A DNA stretch of 64,000 bases. Source: Candidatus Wolfebacteria bacterium. GTDB taxonomy: Bacteria > Patescibacteriota > Minisyncoccia > UBA6257 > UBA9933. Position 1 is the stretch's first letter, and the number at the start of each line of letters is the position of its first letter. The position numbers and the translations under genes are program-made. The notes beneath the pieces are model-generated. The model did no database searches. It had not been told where the DNA came from and saw nothing but the letters and a program-made list of their open reading frames with translations. Positions 40 to 10,645 of the stretch are shown in pieces. The stretch lies in NCBI GenBank assembly GCA_024654025.1, contig JANLIR010000007.1, forward strand, positions 421 to 64,420, read 5' to 3'.

Positions 40-1311
40 TTGTTTATGCCTCGGTACGATGAAGAGTACATTAAGCATCTTTTGAACAGAAACTATTTTA
101 CGCCGCGGCAGTATTTTGACGAGATTCGCTGGGGCGCCAAAAGAAAGCGGTACCCGTACGGCAGCGGTGTTTTTATGTGGTTGGACTTTATTTTACCGGA
201 TTTTCCGACTGAGTTTGTAGTATCTCTTCGGGAGGGGCAGACTGATATGTTCGAGGCTCCTGATTGGCTCAAAAAGGAAATCGGCCTTAAGAATCTTTTC
301 ATCAAGCTGGAGGGGCAAAATCCTTCCGGGAGTTTTAAAGACCGGGGAATGCCTATGGCTATTTCCTGGGCGCGGTTTCAACAAGAGGTGTTTCCCGAGC
401 TCGGCATAGTCGGAGTAGCTTGCGCTTCAACCGGAGATACTTCGGCCTCGGCTGCCCAGTACGCGAGTTATTGCCGCGACAAACTTTTGTGCGTGATTTT
501 CGTTCCGCACGGAAAGATTAGTCCGGAGCAACTCGCACAGGCCACGATGTCCGGCGCTATGGTTATAGCGGTGGACCATCCTACGAATCCGGGTTTTGAT
601 TCCTGCATGAAAATAGTGCAGGAGTTTAATGCCAGATTTCCGAAATTCGCGATGGTCAATTCGGCTAACATACTTCGGGTTGTTGGGCAACAAAGTATTG
701 CGGTTGAGATAAACCAGGATTTCGGCTGGGATTCGCCGGATTGGATCGCTATTCCCGCGGGAAATGGAGGGAATCTTACGGCGTTGATGCTTTCTCTGCT
801 ACGGCAGAAAGAGCATGGTTTGATTGATCGTGTTCCGGGTGTCATAGCCGGGCAGACAGCAAATTCGGATCCTTTGGTGCGCTGGGCAGATTCCGGATTT
901 ACGAAATATGAACCGCTTAAGAAACCGCCGATATCTATTGCTTCGGCAATGGATATCCAAGACCCCGTGTCTTTTCCAAGAATCAACCTTCTACTCAAGG
1001 ATTTTTTGAAAGAGTCTGTTTCAGGAATTCATTTTTTTAAGTCTGACAATCTGGAGATAAACCGGACTCGGGCGCGATTCAACCGAGCTGGCGCGGATGT
1101 GTGTCCGCAGGGAGCGGTAGCAATTCATGCCACGCTCCAGGCAAGAGACAAGGGGATTGTGAAAGAAAATGACCGAGTGGTTGCAATAAGCACAGCGTCT
1201 TCATTGAAGTTCACCGAGTCGGCGATGAAGTATCATATGCTTGTAAATCCGTTTCGCGTGGCAACAACTGGCACGGTGGAGGAGATTGCGAAAATCCTCA
1301 ATCTGACATAA
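40..1311 (+). CDS. thrC: threonine synthase (PLP-dependent)
   Basis: 423-aa ORF with the PLP-lysine motif 'PSGSFKDRG' typical of threonine synthase / beta-family PLP enzymes; followed by a rho-independent terminator at ~1366-1397. Confidence 0.7.
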   Translation: MFMPRYDEEYIKHLLNRNYFTPRQYFDEIRWGAKRKRYPYGSGVFMWLDFILPDFPTEFVVSLREGQTDMFEAPDWLKKEIGLKNLFIKLEGQNPSGSFKDRGMPMAISWARFQQEVFPELGIVGVACASTGDTSASAAQYASYCRDKLLCVIFVPHGKISPEQLAQATMSGAMVIAVDHPTNPGFDSCMKIVQEFNARFPKFAMVNSANILRVVGQQSIAVEINQDFGWDSPDWIAIPAGNGGNLTALMLSLLRQKEHGLIDRVPGVIAGQTANSDPLVRWADSGFTKYEPLKKPPISIASAMDIQDPVSFPRINLLLKDFLKESVSGIHFFKSDNLEINRTRARFNRAGADVCPQGAVAIHATLQARDKGIVKENDRVVAISTASSLKFTESAMKYHMLVNPFRVATTGTVEEIAKILNLT

Positions 1312-5931: not shown

Positions 5932-6510
5932 ATGTTAAAATTAATTATGCCTAAATATTTAAAAGTTTTAATATTAATTGTTGGGGCGGCTATTGCCGGT
6001 GGCGTGTTGGTTTATTCGGTTTATTTTAATTTGCCAAGATCAGAAGCGCCTAATGGAAAAAATGACAATCCGGTTTTTTGCACAATGGAAGCGAAGTTGT
6101 GCCCTGACGGGTCTTATGTGGGAAGAACAGGGCCGAAATGTGAATTTACGCTTTGTCCGAATTTCAAGGTAAAGTCCACTTCTACTTTGGAATTGCCGGG
6201 ATTTTTAAAAGGGAACATAACTATAGGGCCGATTTGTCCGGTTGAACGAATTGATAATCCTTGCAAGCCGACTCCGGAAATGTACGCTGCCAGAAAAATT
6301 TTTGTGTATAACCAAACTAAAACTTTGCTGGTGAAAGAAATAACTCCCGGTCCGGACGGCAGTTATAAAGCTGATTTGGCGCCCGGCGTTTATATTGTTG
6401 ATGTGGCGCATTTTGGCATTGGTTTTGCGAGAGGAGCGCCGGCGCAAATAAAAATTGAATCCGGTAAAACAATTAAATTAGATATTGATATAGACACGGG
6501 TATTAGGTAA
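5932..6510 (+). CDS. membrane-anchored/secreted Cys-containing hypothetical protein
   Basis: N-terminal TM/signal segment; several Cys pairs; no known domain. Confidence 0.45.
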   Translation: MLKLIMPKYLKVLILIVGAAIAGGVLVYSVYFNLPRSEAPNGKNDNPVFCTMEAKLCPDGSYVGRTGPKCEFTLCPNFKVKSTSTLELPGFLKGNITIGPICPVERIDNPCKPTPEMYAARKIFVYNQTKTLLVKEITPGPDGSYKADLAPGVYIVDVAHFGIGFARGAPAQIKIESGKTIKLDIDIDTGIR

Positions 6511-6581
6511 AAATTGGCGCATAATGTTATCCACATTTTTGGCTTTGAACTTGATGAGAATAGACTTATAATAATAATGAA

Positions 6582-6857
6582 GTGAACAAGAAAATAATAA
6601 TAGGTATTTTGGCTGTTTTAATAGTGGCTGGCTTATTATTGGCCGGCTATTTTTATTGGAAAAAGACGGCCGGTACAAATCAAGCGACAAATCAAGCGCA
6701 GAAATCAACGTCAACTGACCCGATTAAAAACGCGGCGACTCAAGGGGTTTTGCCGTCAATAAATCCGGGCTCTAATCCTTTGGAAAAATCTCCGAATGTT
6801 AATCCTGCTGATAGCGCTAATCCGTTTAAAAACGCAAAAACAAATCCGTTTCAATAA
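6582..6857 (+). CDS. small secreted low-complexity protein
   Basis: signal/TM segment then N/Q/P/S-rich tail. Confidence 0.3.
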   Translation: MNKKIIIGILAVLIVAGLLLAGYFYWKKTAGTNQATNQAQKSTSTDPIKNAATQGVLPSINPGSNPLEKSPNVNPADSANPFKNAKTNPFQ

Positions 6858-6863
6858 TAAAAA

Positions 6864-8540
6864 ATGAAAATAAGAATTTTAAGCTTATCGGTTTTAGCTT
6901 TCGGGATTATTATTTCCGCGGGCATTATTTTGGATGCGAAAACGTTTGCGCAAGAAAATGCGGGAAATTCCAACGCAGAGGTAAATATTCAGTATCCAAT
7001 TGTGGAATTGGGTAATTGTAAAAATAAAGAGGAGTGTAAAAACTTTTGCGAGAAACCTGAGCATACAAATGCTTGTCTTGCTTTTGCCCAGACAAATAAT
7101 TTGATGAGCAAAGAAGAAATTGCGGCAGCTAAAAAAATGCTTTCAATCGGTAAAGGCCCGGGTGGTTGCACGAGTAAAGATACGTGCGAAGCGTATTGTG
7201 ATAACACTGATCATATAAATGAATGCGTGGCGTTTGCCGAAAAAACAGGGATAATACCACCAAAGGATCTTGAAGAGGCTAAAAAAATAAAAGCGGCGAT
7301 TGATAGCGGTATAAAGCCGCCTCCATGCAAGAGCAAAAAAGAATGCGACAGTTATTGCGGCAGCGGGGCGGATCAGATGGAGCAGTGTATTACATTTGCC
7401 AAGGCAGCTGGTTTTATGAAACCGGAAGAAGAAGCGGACGCGCAGAAAATGATAGCCGCGATGAAAAAAGGAGCTAAGCCGCCGGCTTGTAACGGCAAGG
7501 AAGATTGCGATCAGTATTGTTCTCAGGATACCCATTTTGAAGAGTGTATTAATTTTGCGGAAGTGGCTGGTTTTATTACTTCCGAAGAAGTACAGATGGC
7601 GAGAAAGACCGGAGGAAAAGGTCCGGGAAATTGCCGCGGCAAGGAAGAGTGTGATAGTTTTTGCCAAAAAGATGCGAATATGGAAACTTGCGCGAATTTT
7701 GCTGTTGAGCACGGAATGATGAGCCAGAAAGATCTTGAGATGTTTAAGAAAACCGGAGGCAAGGGTCCGGGCGGATGCAAGAGTAAAGATGAGTGCGACG
7801 CGTTTTGTAATAATTCCGAAAACCGGGAGGCGTGTTTTAGCTTTGGGAAAGAACACGGGCTTATTTCCGAAGAAGATCTTAAAAAAATGGAAGACGGGAA
7901 ACAGAAAATGGTGGAAGGATTTAATCAAGCTCCGCCGGAAGTTGTAAATTGTTTAAAACAAGCATTCGGCGATAATAACTTTGAAAAAATAAAAAGCGGA
8001 GGTTTTATGCCCACTCAAGAGATGGGCGAACATATGCGCGAGTGTTTTGGGAAAATGGGTCCGCCTCCCGGTGATGAAAAACCAGGCGAAGGACCAGGTG
8101 GATGGCCTGATGGAGGGCCGAATAGTTCCGGAACGCCCATGATGGGTCCGGGAAAAGACGATCAGAGCGGCGGCCCGAATATTGATTCATTGCCTTCGCA
8201 GGTTAAAGAATGCATGATTTTAAATTTCGGGGCTAATTTTGAAGAGCGTGTTAAATTAGGGGAAATAAAAGGCGAAGAATTTGGCCAGCAAGTCACAAAA
8301 TGTTTTGTGAATTTCCAGTCGCAACAAGGCGTGCCAATGCAGAATTTTACTATGCCCTCAGGAAGCCAAATGATGCCGCTTCAAATGAATCAGCCCTTGC
8401 CAATTCAACCGCAACAAACATTACCGCCTCCTCCAGCTCCTACTCAACAGCCGCTTCCTTCCGGGTTTGTTCCGGCAAAAATGCTTTTAGGGTTTTTGAT
8501 TGAGGCGTTCGATAATGTTTTTCAAAAAATAGGATTTTAA
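6864..8540 (+). CDS. secreted protein with six cysteine-rich ~50-aa tandem repeats and a Pro/Gln-rich tail
   Basis: N-terminal signal/TM; six repeats of C-x5-C-x3-C-x8-C ... F-A/G-x-x-x-G (CKNKEECKNFCEKPEHTNAC, CTSKDTCEAYCDNTDHINEC, CKSKKECDSYCGSGADQMEQC, CNGKEDCDQYCSQDTHFEEC, CRGKEECDSFCQKDANMETC, CKSKDECDAFCNNSENREAC); C-terminal G/P/Q-rich region. Confidence 0.6.
   Translation: MKIRILSLSVLAFGIIISAGIILDAKTFAQENAGNSNAEVNIQYPIVELGNCKNKEECKNFCEKPEHTNACLAFAQTNNLMSKEEIAAAKKMLSIGKGPGGCTSKDTCEAYCDNTDHINECVAFAEKTGIIPPKDLEEAKKIKAAIDSGIKPPPCKSKKECDSYCGSGADQMEQCITFAKAAGFMKPEEEADAQKMIAAMKKGAKPPACNGKEDCDQYCSQDTHFEECINFAEVAGFITSEEVQMARKTGGKGPGNCRGKEECDSFCQKDANMETCANFAVEHGMMSQKDLEMFKKTGGKGPGGCKSKDECDAFCNNSENREACFSFGKEHGLISEEDLKKMEDGKQKMVEGFNQAPPEVVNCLKQAFGDNNFEKIKSGGFMPTQEMGEHMRECFGKMGPPPGDEKPGEGPGGWPDGGPNSSGTPMMGPGKDDQSGGPNIDSLPSQVKECMILNFGANFEERVKLGEIKGEEFGQQVTKCFVNFQSQQGVPMQNFTMPSGSQMMPLQMNQPLPIQPQQTLPPPPAPTQQPLPSGFVPAKMLLGFLIEAFDNVFQKIGF
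7017..7830 (+). repeat. six in-frame tandem ~150-nt repeats encoding the Cys-rich module
   Basis: periodic CxxxxxCxxxC motif in translation; the antisense ORF 7143..7928 is a by-product of the repeat. Confidence 0.6.
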
Positions 8541-8566
8541 TAAGCCGAATAAATCTTTGATAAATT

Positions 8567-9091
8567 ATGGACGGACAGGATGGACAAAAAAAATTTTCAA
8601 CAGGAATTCAGATAGCGGCCGTTGTCGTCGTAATAATTATTTTTGGCGCGCTTTACTATTATTCCAAAAATATGAGTAGCCAGCCAACAGAGCAACCGCA
8701 AAGCGGACAACAGACAACAACTTCATCTCAGCAGGCTTCTTCGACAAATTCGACAAAAACGAAACCGGGCGCCACCACGAAAAAGTCAACCGCGCCTACG
8801 CCCGAACAGTCCGTCACTTACGATCAGGCAATTAATACTTACGGCAGCAAGAGAATTCAGTTTGACCCCAGTTGCGGCGTTATCCCTTCGTATTCTAATT
8901 ATTTAAATAACACGAAAGTCATGTTTGATAATCGGTATGAAAAAGGCAGGTGGTTTTATTTGGACGGCAAGGGGTATTATTTGGAGTCGTACGGATTTAA
9001 AATAGTTACGCTTTACAGCAAAACCTTGCCGCATACGGTAAAAATCGACTGCGGCGCAGGCAAAAACAACGGGCAGATACTTTTGCAGTAA
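8567..9091 (+). CDS. membrane-anchored hypothetical protein with S/T/Q-rich linker
   Basis: TM helix, low-complexity linker, C-terminal globular part. Confidence 0.45.
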   Translation: MDGQDGQKKFSTGIQIAAVVVVIIIFGALYYYSKNMSSQPTEQPQSGQQTTTSSQQASSTNSTKTKPGATTKKSTAPTPEQSVTYDQAINTYGSKRIQFDPSCGVIPSYSNYLNNTKVMFDNRYEKGRWFYLDGKGYYLESYGFKIVTLYSKTLPHTVKIDCGAGKNNGQILLQ

Positions 9092-9195
9092 TTTAAAGCA
9101 AGCAGACAAGTTTTTATTTGTCCCGCGCAAGCGGGATTTATTTTGTAAGAAAACGCTTCTGATTCGTCTAATATTTAGTGGCTAAAAAACCAACC

Positions 9196-9322
9196 CATTC
9201 GACTGACTCAGGTCTTCGACTCCCTCGGGACTGAGTCCTCGGGACGAACGTCCGAGACTCAGATCTTCTGATTCAGAGAATCATCAGATTCGATGAACTC
9301 GAGGAGGTTGTCCTGAGTTAAT
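9196..9322. repeat. GC-rich highly palindromic element (REP/RPE-like or structured leader) upstream of 9365 gene
   Basis: local GC spike in AT-rich DNA; nested inverted repeats e.g. CTGAGTCCTCGG...CCGAGACTCAG (12-bp stem), TCTGATTC...GAATCATCAGA, GTCCT...AGGAC; shares 'TTCGACTGA' and 'AGGAGG..GTCCTGAG' with the uvrC insert. Confidence 0.4.
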
Positions 9323-9364
9323 TGAAGGACAAAAATGGTCGTAAAATAATTAAAAAAAATAAAC

Positions 9365-10645
9365 ATGAAAAAGAAATTATTAGCATCAATACTAGCAGGG
9401 CTTACAATTCTAAGTTTGGTCGCGTTTGCGCCATTTGCTTCGGCGGATAGGGGCGGTCGGGAGGACAAGAGAGGAGGTCGGGATCGAGATGATGACAATC
9501 TTAATCTTAATCGCGGCCAGATGATTTCTTCGTTTGTCCGCGGTCTCAACAGCGGTCCGGGCAGTATCAACAGCGGCCGGGATCGGGACGACGACGACGA
9601 TGATGATGATGAGGATCTTAACGATAGAGACGAAAACAGAGGTCGAGGGAATGTCGGGGCTGGTATTAGCGATGGCAGAATCCAGGCATTAGAGAGATTA
9701 ATAGTTCTTATCCAGGAACAAATTCAGATTTTATTGGCGAGATTGAATGAGCTTAGGGGGGACGTTAATACTGTTTTGACAATTTCTTCCGTTGCGGCAA
9801 CCGAGATCAAAATAACTGAAGCAAAGGTTGTCTGGTTAACAAGCAGATCGGCAGACAGCAAAGTTTACTTTAGCACGGCTTCGCCCGTTGATCTTGCTAC
9901 CGCGCGAACAAAGTCTAAGGGAGGCCTTGAATTCAGCCACAGAGTCAGTTTGGATGGATTATCTCCAAATACCACTTATTTCTTTATTGTTGAATCAAAG
10001 GACACTTCCAACAATGTCGTTCGATCAGCGCAGTTTTCTTTCACTACCTTATCTGTCGGCGTTGATAATGCCGCTCCGATATTATCTTCTTTGATTGTAA
10101 CTAACATTGCTTCAAGCTCGGCAGAAGTTAAATGGGTTACCAACAAATCCGCCACAAGTAAGGCCTACTTTTCAACTAGCTCCCCGGTTAATTTAGGAAC
10201 AGCTTTAACTGTTGTGGACGCCAGTTTGGTGACCAGCCATTCGTTGAGGCTGACAGGACTTAGCGCCAGTACGACTTACTTCTTTGTAGTTGAGTCATTT
10301 GACGCGGCGAGTAGTGTTACAAGGTCAGCGCAGCTTTCCTTTAACACGGTATCCGCGGCCGCGCCTGTTATTTCGGTGATTTCCGTTTCGGGCTTAAGTT
10401 CGTCAACGGCTACAATTTCCTGGACAACCGATACGCTATCTACGAGCAAAGTTTACTTCTCGACCAGCACTCCGGTTAATGTTTTGAGCGCTCAGACTGC
10501 ATCAAGCAGCGCTCTTGTTACAAGCCATTTAATAGTTTTAACAGGGCTTAGCGCCAATACCAATTATTACTTTGTAATTGAGTCTGTTGACGTAATAAGC
10601 AATGTGAGCCGGTCAAGTCAGTTTTCGTTTCTGACCACGCTTTAA
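9365..10645 (+). CDS. secreted protein: signal peptide, poly-acidic region, coiled segment, three tandem FN3-like domains
   Basis: signal peptide; 'DRDDDDDDDDEDLNDRDENRG'; three ~100-aa repeats each ending 'TTYFF(I/V)VES.D...V.RS(A/S)QFSF.T'. Confidence 0.6.
   Translation: MKKKLLASILAGLTILSLVAFAPFASADRGGREDKRGGRDRDDDNLNLNRGQMISSFVRGLNSGPGSINSGRDRDDDDDDDDEDLNDRDENRGRGNVGAGISDGRIQALERLIVLIQEQIQILLARLNELRGDVNTVLTISSVAATEIKITEAKVVWLTSRSADSKVYFSTASPVDLATARTKSKGGLEFSHRVSLDGLSPNTTYFFIVESKDTSNNVVRSAQFSFTTLSVGVDNAAPILSSLIVTNIASSSAEVKWVTNKSATSKAYFSTSSPVNLGTALTVVDASLVTSHSLRLTGLSASTTYFFVVESFDAASSVTRSAQLSFNTVSAAAPVISVISVSGLSSSTATISWTTDTLSTSKVYFSTSTPVNVLSAQTASSSALVTSHLIVLTGLSANTNYYFVIESVDVISNVSRSSQFSFLTTL
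9587..9616 (+). repeat. (GAY)10 trinucleotide microsatellite in coding sequence (poly-Asp)
   Basis: gacgacgacgacgatgatgatgatgaggat. Confidence 0.8.

Follow-up and report, generated by a model that had tools for sequence, protein, structure and literature searches.

What kind of protein carries an array of six cysteine-rich repeats in a Candidatus Wolfebacteria genome, and what could such an array be for? The question is raised by a gene at positions 6864..8540 on the forward (+) strand of a 64,000-nt stretch of contig JANLIR010000007.1 (assembly GCA_024654025.1). This whole stretch is called the window below; all coordinates refer to it, and all features lie on the forward (+) strand unless stated otherwise. 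The gene, hereafter the Cys-repeat gene, encodes a product of 558 amino acids (aa) plus stop, which a preliminary description, made by reading the sequence, had presented as a novel secreted protein. As set out below, its repeat is a new all-helical domain, the protein belongs to a large and conserved family found almost entirely in Patescibacteria (the candidate phyla radiation, CPR), and it is encoded next to a small membrane protein whose tail ends in repeated NP motifs.

The repeats were located by a regular-expression search of the translation, which placed the first cysteines of the six units at aa 52, 102, 155, 209, 257, and 305. Their spacing is C-x5-C-x3-C-x8-C, with x9 instead of x8 in unit 3. 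After the fourth cysteine of each unit come F-A (F-G in unit 6), a glycine 4-5 residues on, and then a Lys/Glu-rich helix. The units are 48-54 aa long and share 28-38% pairwise identity. A profile derived from all six matched each unit at E-values of 1e-23 to 1e-26, with no further match anywhere in the 64-kb window. Regular expression and profile thus agree with the preliminary description, which had reported six repeats of ~50 aa combining this cysteine spacing with F-A...G and an acidic/Lys-rich segment.

An AlphaFold2 (AF2) model of the protein was built with a 66-sequence alignment. Its mean predicted local distance difference test score (pLDDT) is 78, with aa 41-400 mostly above 90, and low confidence is confined to aa 1-38 and 409-436 (both with pLDDT <50) and to aa 487-537. 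The model is all-helical, with three helices per unit and no strands. Within a unit, the first cysteine (C1) lies three residues ahead of helix 1, which is short and in which C2 and C3 are one turn apart; C4 is carried by helix 2, and helix 3 corresponds to the Lys/Glu-rich segment. A separate AF2 model of units 2-3 (pLDDT 91, predicted template modelling score 0.73) shows the same secondary structure as the full model.

On these grounds the protein can be divided as follows. A Sec-type signal peptide (aa 1-29, 6864..6950), recognized by inspection of the sequence and falling in the N-terminal region of low pLDDT, has a predicted cleavage site at TFA|QE. The mature N-terminus (6951..7007) carries a cap, IQYP-x-x-ELGN, in which I42, Y44, P45, E48, L49, and G50 are each at least 90% conserved. 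Unit 1 (aa 49-98; C52/C58/C62/C71) lies at 7008..7157 and shows the three helices in the full model, and unit 2 (aa 99-151; C102/C108/C112/C121), also covered by the two-unit model, lies at 7158..7316; both were found by regular expression and by profile. They are followed by unit 3 (aa 152-205; C155/C161/C165/C175, with the x9 loop) at 7317..7478, unit 4 (aa 206-253; C209/C215/C219/C228) at 7479..7622, unit 5 (aa 254-301; C257/C263/C267/C276), with a KTGGKGPGG linker, at 7623..7766, and unit 6 (aa 302-356; C305/C311/C315/C324), again supported by both searches, at 7767..7931.

What had been described as a Pro/Gln/Gly-rich tail turned out to be composite. It begins with a helical hairpin carrying two cysteines, hairpin A (aa 357-400, 7932..8063), in which C363 is invariant and C394 at least 90% conserved. 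A Gly/Pro-rich linker (aa 401-440, 8064..8183), predicted to be disordered and containing the second stretch of low pLDDT, leads to a second 2-Cys helical hairpin, B (aa 441-487; C450/C480; 8184..8324), recognized by its homology to hairpin A (33% identity, E 3e-6). Most homologues have a C-x5-C-x3-C-x6-C unit at the position of hairpin B instead. A Pro/Gln-rich low-complexity spacer (aa 488-537, 8325..8474), predicted by AF2 to be disordered, precedes a C-terminal helix (aa 538-558, AKMLLGFLIEAFDNVFQKIGF, 8475..8537; helical at aa 538-555 in the model). With a hydrophobic moment of 0.36 and a mean hydrophobicity of 0.40, this helix is amphipathic and not membrane-spanning. The C-termini of homologues share the form PPPPSS..P-x-S-x-LG followed by 6-10 hydrophobic residues, usually with K/R last. 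The initial count of 24 cysteines accordingly holds for the six units but not for the whole protein, which has 28, since the two hairpins (C363/C394 and C450/C480) had been missed.

The modelled fold has no counterpart among known structures. Foldseek searches against PDB and BFVD returned no structural analogue: in PDB, the full model reached an E-value of 0.26 at best and the two-unit model one of 2.5, and TM-scores were at most 0.35; the best non-significant matches of the full array were a designer PPR protein, TPR, and annexin. At the sequence level, the protein had no match above threshold in Pfam, NCBIfam, PHROGs, or PADLOC, its best Pfam match being AtDEF-like at 10.9 bits against a cut-off of 25. 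Pfam, NCBIfam, PHROGs, and PADLOC applied to 66 family members gave just sub-threshold matches driven by cysteine composition or transmembrane (TM) segments. Whether the query was the protein itself, the profile of its units, or that of the family, searches of PDB sequences yielded nothing but low-complexity polyQ/polyP matches, and EF-hand and EH hidden Markov models (HMMs) did not match the protein. The failure to recognize a known domain at first reading is thus borne out, and the modelling and fold searches suggested at that time gave a confident all-helical structure and matched no characterized Cys-rich family. Beta-rich Cys domains (EGF, TNFR, defensin-like, ADAM Cys-rich, and Kazal) were considered and rejected, their matches being sub-threshold and the model having no strands. 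The ADAM10_Cys-rich model, for instance, had a sub-threshold match in 3 of the 66 family members, and two long superfamily members (P0184 and P0238) had short partial Kazal matches near the cut-off, which are read as cysteine-composition matches.

Among known proteins, the nearest in kind are HcpA/B/C of Helicobacter, which are exported and built of disulfide-pinned helical repeats. These members of the Sel1-like repeat (SLR) family are secreted solenoids of helical tandem repeats, each with a disulfide inside the repeat. An SLR unit has ~36 aa, two helices, and one disulfide, whereas the units described here have 48-54 aa, three helices, and four cysteines. Sel1/TPR HMMs had no match at E up to 1 in the protein or up to 0.01 in the 66 homologues, no Hcp structure occurred among the Foldseek PDB matches, and the SLR family is not known to have an obligatory small partner gene. 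The Cys unit defines a new domain family, although its general kind, that of disulfide-stabilized extracellular helical repeats, is known. No description of a CPR Cys-rich repeat protein was found in the searchable literature; in the Meheust preprint, 'cysteine-rich' is said of CAP domains, and a 2026 preprint on CPR pili deals with pilins, which are unrelated to the Cys-repeat protein.

How widespread is this protein? The preliminary description had proposed a search of CPR sequences for the repeat, and a large family came to light. A word-index protein search at E<=1e-3 retrieved 2245 homologues, the best 120 all at E<1e-140, from Wolfe-, Pace-, Azam-, Kaiser-, Lipton-, Giovannoni-, Portnoy-, and Magasanikbacteria and similar lineages. 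Those that bear a name are called 'hypothetical protein' and, once, 'proline-rich domain-containing protein', and none has a functional name. The protein is therefore novel in being uncharacterized and unnamed but not in being unseen, since thousands of such hypothetical homologues are already in databases. A HMMER search of 1.84 billion cluster representatives (50% identity) with the six-unit profile gave 1721 matches at E<=1e-3 and 917 at E<=1e-30, and a scan of one genome per GTDB species found homologues in at least 397 genomes. Source titles were inspected for the best 80 loci of that scan, and nearly all of these loci were labelled Patescibacteria, Parcubacteria, or a named CPR lineage. 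Almost all of the family, which is uncharacterized, comes from metagenome-assembled genomes assigned by their labels to Patescibacteria or CPR candidate phyla.

Other labels (Gammaproteobacteria, Methylomirabilis, Aenigmatarchaeota, and Omnitrophica) were met at three of these 80 loci (L009, L012, and L075) and for protein P0061 from the word-index search. All three loci carry the partner gene described below, and L012 has a GC content of 43%. Such contigs are likely mis-binned or mislabelled CPR contigs.

Conservation within the family is concentrated in the array. All four cysteines are present in 1969 of 1998 unit instances taken from 268 homologues, the remainder being truncated alignments. 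In 62 diverse orthologues whose sources name about ten candidate phyla, the array (aa 41-356) has a mean pairwise identity of 66%, a level expected of housekeeping proteins, whereas identity elsewhere averages 34% in the signal, 38% in the Pro/Gln tail, and 28% in the C-terminal helix. Within each unit, charged positions at the surface are conserved as well. Strong purifying selection acts on the array, and the number of units is maintained. The protein of the window is a regular member of the family: it aligns end to end with homologues at 40-78% identity and has the IQYP-ELGNC cap, the six units, the 2-Cys hairpin, the Pro-rich tail, and the upstream gene for an NPF-ending tail.

Whether the number of repeats varies between strains had been raised as a point to check, and within the orthologous group it does not: exactly six contiguous units are found in 113 of 120 orthologues. 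Two arrangements of these six can be distinguished by their start-to-start spacings, which are 51-53-53-53-48 in most orthologues (arrangement A) and 50-53-53/54-48-48 in the window and about 18 others (arrangement B). Compared with A, arrangement B lacks one unit of type 3/4 and has the 48-aa unit 5 twice, as seen on comparing 7317..7766 of the window with P0005, P0024, and P0117. Unit 3 of the window protein thus corresponds to units 3/4 of the majority arrangement, unit 4 is closest to its unit 5, and unit 5 is the second copy of the 48-aa type. Since both arrangements have six units, there has been a turnover of units at a constant total of six. Arrays of the wider superfamily range from 2 to 11 units. 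Three of its members (P0139, P0219, and P0237; 923-1062 aa) have 9-10 units, to which a further N-terminal region and, at the C-terminus, a Laminin_G_3 (ConA-like lectin) domain are added.

The Cys-repeat gene does not stand alone. Immediately upstream, a gene with a GTG start (6582..6857), overlooked in the preliminary description, encodes a 91-aa single-pass membrane protein and ends 6 nt before the Cys-repeat gene. The product of this partner gene consists of MNKK, a hydrophobic helix ending in GYFYW, a variable linker, and a tail rich in NP motifs. The helix (aa 5-26, IIIGILAVLIVAGLLLAGYFYW, 6594..6659), read from the sequence as a TM segment or signal anchor, contains G22, F24, and W26, which are invariant in the alignment. 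The tail (aa 55-91, 6744..6854) was delimited in an alignment of 82 sequences and reads GVLPSI..NPLE..NPAD..ANPFK..KTNPF-end, with four NP motifs. The family form, GVLPSI..NPLE..(K)PD(I/V)NPAD.ANPFK.IKTNPF, is 70-99% conserved per column in the same sequences, and it stops 0-2 residues past the last NPF. An N-in/C-out topology, placing this tail outside the cytoplasm, is predicted for the partner. A word-index search with the partner found 67 homologues, all unnamed, and no curated family in Pfam, NCBIfam, PHROGs, or PADLOC matched it above threshold.

The two genes are tightly linked. Among 84 loci collected through the Cys-repeat protein, 81 have a partner homologue directly upstream on the same strand; two of the remaining three are cut at a contig end, and at the last (L037) the partner is a variant form with four TNPF motifs. 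No locus with sufficient upstream sequence thus lacks a partner. Conservation does not extend to any further neighbour, the next most frequent flanking family being present in 6 of the 84 loci. The linkage extends to distant members of the superfamily (316-1555 aa, 5-11 units). A gene for an NPF tail lies just upstream of P0139 (1062 aa, ten units plus LamG; upstream gene at L085 3699-3974; tail ETNPFQGDVNPFGADTNPASSVNPFTNPYKNPFE), of P0144 (1555 aa; tail TNPFESTPVNPLEGAGYANPLKDVKLNPFK), and of P0252 (316 aa; tail TNPLEKMPETNPFDKAINPFKTLYKNPFK). The 4-Cys unit alone is common to all of the large proteins linked to a partner, and this is the main ground for supposing that the unit and the NP-motif tail work together. 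A relationship between arrangement A or B and the length of the LPSI-NPxE spacer of the partner is suggestive (Fisher p about 0.005) and is not relied on, the test being confounded by phylogeny and 20 of 81 tails having been left unparsed by the regular expression. Upstream of the pair, a promoter-like site, TTGAAC-16-TATAAT (10/12), was found at 6545..6572, 10 nt before the GTG of the partner gene, in a consensus scan only; it may be the promoter of the operon. If this site is used, the operon mRNA would be nearly leaderless, the -10 box ending 10 nt before the GTG.

What could such a pair do? The picture that we tentatively favour, at a little short of an even chance, is that of a Sec-exported, disulfide-locked scaffold of helical repeats that acts on the outer side of the membrane together with its NPF-tail partner. 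The two genes would form an operon (6582..8540) encoding an extracytoplasmic envelope complex. After export, oxidation of the CPR MdbA/VKOR type would introduce two disulfides into each unit and one into each hairpin, and the oxidized array would be a rigid, protease-resistant helical rod, kept at or above the outward face of the membrane by the amphipathic C-terminal helix and the proline-rich spacer. The 4-Cys units may be binding sites for the membrane partner's extended NP[F/L] tail, in the manner of helical-repeat or EH-type modules, and the role of the complex would be a housekeeping one, in envelope structure or scaffolding, rather than catalysis or host-specific adhesion.

Two known types of module provide the analogies for tail binding. 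EH domains are helical modules of eukaryotic endocytosis that recognize tandem NPF motifs on disordered tails. The likeness is an analogy and would lie in the repeated NP[F/L] motifs that end the partner, and EH domains, unlike the 4-Cys units, have no Cys framework. Alpha-solenoids of the TPR and PPR type offer a plausible parallel for the binding of an extended C-terminal tail in a groove, but they have no sequence relationship to the window protein and match its model just at Foldseek E-values of 0.26 or more and TM-scores of 0.35 or less; moreover, they are cytoplasmic proteins of two-helix units without cysteines.

Several points weigh against this scaffold model. The C-terminal helix has neither the length nor the apolar character of a TM anchor, and attachment of the rod to the membrane is a guess. 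The signal-peptide call was made by inspection only, and the topology assigned to the partner depends just on its short MNKK n-region, with lysines flanking the TM helix on both sides. Binding between unit and tail is a proposal, and proteins with more units do not have partners with more NP motifs (r = 0.02), the distant pairs behaving likewise. Finally, the position of C2 and C3 one helical turn apart also suits a metal or cluster site.

A bolder version, which we consider rather unlikely, sees in the 4-Cys three-helix unit a new peptide-recognition domain, specific to bacteria, for NP[F/L] motifs and supposes that, with its partner, it forms a Patescibacteria-wide envelope complex of fixed length (six units). 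If so, the complex could be a spacer or scaffold between the membrane and the wall or surface layer, and either the architecture of the envelope or attachment in episymbiosis could depend on it. This would then be the first case of NPF-motif recognition known from organisms other than eukaryotes, and the complex would be one of the structural hallmarks of CPR cells. Patescibacteria make up a large share of bacterial diversity, their envelope and host attachment are poorly understood, and most CPR-specific families have no assigned function. The module described here is widespread, confidently modelled, and without a Pfam, NCBIfam, or PDB relative, and it has a candidate ligand encoded next door; confirmed binding would establish a new system of short-linear-motif recognition in bacteria.

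The protein could also be a surface adhesin or attachment fibre for episymbiosis, with the Cys-locked rod binding the host surface from its Pro-rich stalk and the small protein acting just as a helper in export or anchoring. An exported, rod-like repeat array with a Pro-rich spacer would suit such a function, as would the variation of unit numbers in the superfamily (2-11) and the ConA-like lectin domain at the C-terminus of some members; CPR-enriched families have also been linked to cell-cell interaction (PMC6744442). However, host-specific adhesins usually diverge fast, and this array is 66% identical over about ten candidate phyla, with its six units held. The surface charges conserved unit by unit likewise fit a conserved endogenous partner better than diverse hosts, and we consider an adhesin unlikely.

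Is the protein exported? Its N-terminus consists of MKIR, a hydrophobic core of 19 residues, and TFA|QE, with no twin-arginine motif, and homologues share a small-residue site, [VTAIL]-x-[AS]|Q, at the corresponding position. The signal or TM segment noticed at first reading thus has the K/R n-region, hydrophobic core, and conserved [AS]|Q site of a signal peptide, which supports export by the Sec-type route, with predicted cleavage at this site. Members of the superfamily carry signal peptides as well, and the addition of Laminin_G_3 in some of them gives the domain an extracellular context.

The preliminary description had left the choice between disulfides, 12 in number, and a metal-binding array. 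Cysteines are even in number in 258 of 265 full-length homologues, and counts restricted to those outside the 4-Cys units nearly always come out even as well. In addition, the Pro-rich tails of 44 homologues (including P0007, P0012, and P0047) contain C-x4-C loops such as CEGENC, which the window protein does not have. These loops and the 2-Cys hairpins can be understood only as disulfides. According to Meheust et al. 2019 (PMC6744442), CPR genomes are enriched in sortase, VKOR, and an MdbA-like thiol-disulfide oxidoreductase, so that disulfide-forming machinery is to be expected in these bacteria; no obvious MdbA/VKOR-type candidate occurs among the CxxC open reading frames (ORFs) of the 64-kb window. 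The even cysteine counts and the enrichment of MdbA and VKOR favour disulfides, probably two per unit and one per hairpin, or about 14 in all rather than 12. Judged solely by helix geometry, a C2-C3 disulfide (i, i+4 on one helix) would be unlikely, which would leave C1-C3/C2-C4 or C1-C2/C3-C4 as candidate pairings. Patterns of cysteine loss are uninformative on this point because all four cysteines are essentially invariant.

Helical modules with two disulfides are known from the twin Cx3C/Cx9C (CHCH) proteins of the mitochondrial intermembrane space, which are oxidized by a dedicated oxidoreductase after import in an unfolded state. Their spacing is a paired Cx3C/Cx9C, in contrast to C-x5-C-x3-C-x8-C, and they are eukaryotic and occur as single modules instead of arrays. 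No CHCH-type protein matched the window protein by sequence or by fold (PDB and Foldseek).

If the cysteines instead held metal, each unit could form a tetrathiolate Zn/Fe/Cu or cluster site, and the array would be an extracytoplasmic metal store, buffer, or scavenger of the envelope. The four strictly invariant cysteines per unit would suit such a site, as would their geometry: C2 and C3 share a helix face at a distance of one turn, C1 and C4 sit on the adjacent elements, and all four could converge on one site. Furthermore, published descriptions of the SPASM Fe-S motif include 'Cx5Cx3C'. Nevertheless, a Sec-type signal without twin arginines disfavours the export of a pre-assembled cofactor, and the 2-Cys hairpins, C-x4-C loops, and even number of non-unit cysteines are the signature of an oxidizing folding environment, for which CPR bacteria encode MdbA and VKOR. 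There is no conserved histidine in the unit motif, and Fer4, SPASM, and zinc-finger HMMs had no match to the protein even at E up to 1 and none in the 66 homologues. SPASM itself, which shares the Cx5Cx3C sub-pattern with the unit, is a cytoplasmic accessory domain of radical-SAM proteins with seven cysteines and beta elements, unlike the Sec-exported, all-helical units. A SPASM or ferredoxin Fe-S relationship was rejected in view of the export route, the all-helical fold, and the absent HMM matches, and a metal-binding array of any kind seems improbable to us.

A thiol-disulfide relay or reservoir, in which the 28 cysteines would cycle and thereby buffer or transmit oxidizing equivalents in the envelope, is suggested only by the very high and invariant cysteine content. 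It is very improbable: there is no CxxC redox motif and no match to a thioredoxin fold, and the cysteines lie within compact helical units, as is the case for structural cross-links.

It could finally be asked whether the repeat belongs to a real gene at all, the preliminary description having allowed for an artefact of assembly. Tandem Repeats Finder detected no DNA tandem repeat inside the Cys-repeat gene, whose longest direct DNA repeats are at most 56 nt long and 60-84% identical, and a protein 100% identical to the window product is on record from a metagenome-assembled genome (P0001, 'hypothetical protein NUV83_02740 [Candidatus Wolfebacteria bacterium]'). The repeat is therefore not an assembly artefact, and the gene is confirmed as real. 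Nor is the repeat a product of chance, given that units with all four cysteines recur in 1969 of 1998 instances among the 268 homologues. An antisense ORF of 261 aa (7143..7928 on the reverse (-) strand), which is codon-aligned to the sense frame, spans sense codons 94-355. It is bounded by TCA at codon 94 and TTA at codon 364, and between these two codons the sense frame contains no TTA, CTA, or TCA, the only sense codons that give a stop in this antisense frame. At other loci, the antisense frame is broken differently (212 ORF pieces in 81 loci). As suspected at first reading, the antisense ORF is thus a by-product of sense codon usage and not a gene. That the repeat is artefactual, or that this ORF is a true gene, has nothing beyond the existence of the ORF in its favour and is already refuted, with practically no probability left, by DNA copies that are just 60-84% identical, by the same architecture in hundreds of independent assemblies, and by a codon usage that explains an antisense ORF fragmented elsewhere.

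The pair of genes lies within a run of five consecutive genes (5932..10645) encoding products of 192, 91, 558, 174, and 426 aa, all of which are apparently exported or membrane-anchored. Of these, just the 91-aa and 558-aa pair is conserved as neighbours elsewhere. The first gene of the run (5932..6510) encodes the 192-aa protein, which combines a 4-Cys segment (CTMEAKLCPDGSYVGRTGPKCEFTLCP) with a TM helix at its N-terminus and matches a CarboxypepD_reg-like beta-sandwich weakly, below threshold (E 0.044); homologues of it occur in just 2 of the 84 related loci. The last (9365..10645) encodes the 426-aa protein, in which an apparent signal at the N-terminus is accompanied by an extremely Asp/Arg-rich low-complexity stretch (RDRDDDDDDDDEDLNDRDENRGRG) and by three beta-sandwich domains resembling fn3 or the N-terminal domain of purple acid phosphatases (Pfam E 3e-25).

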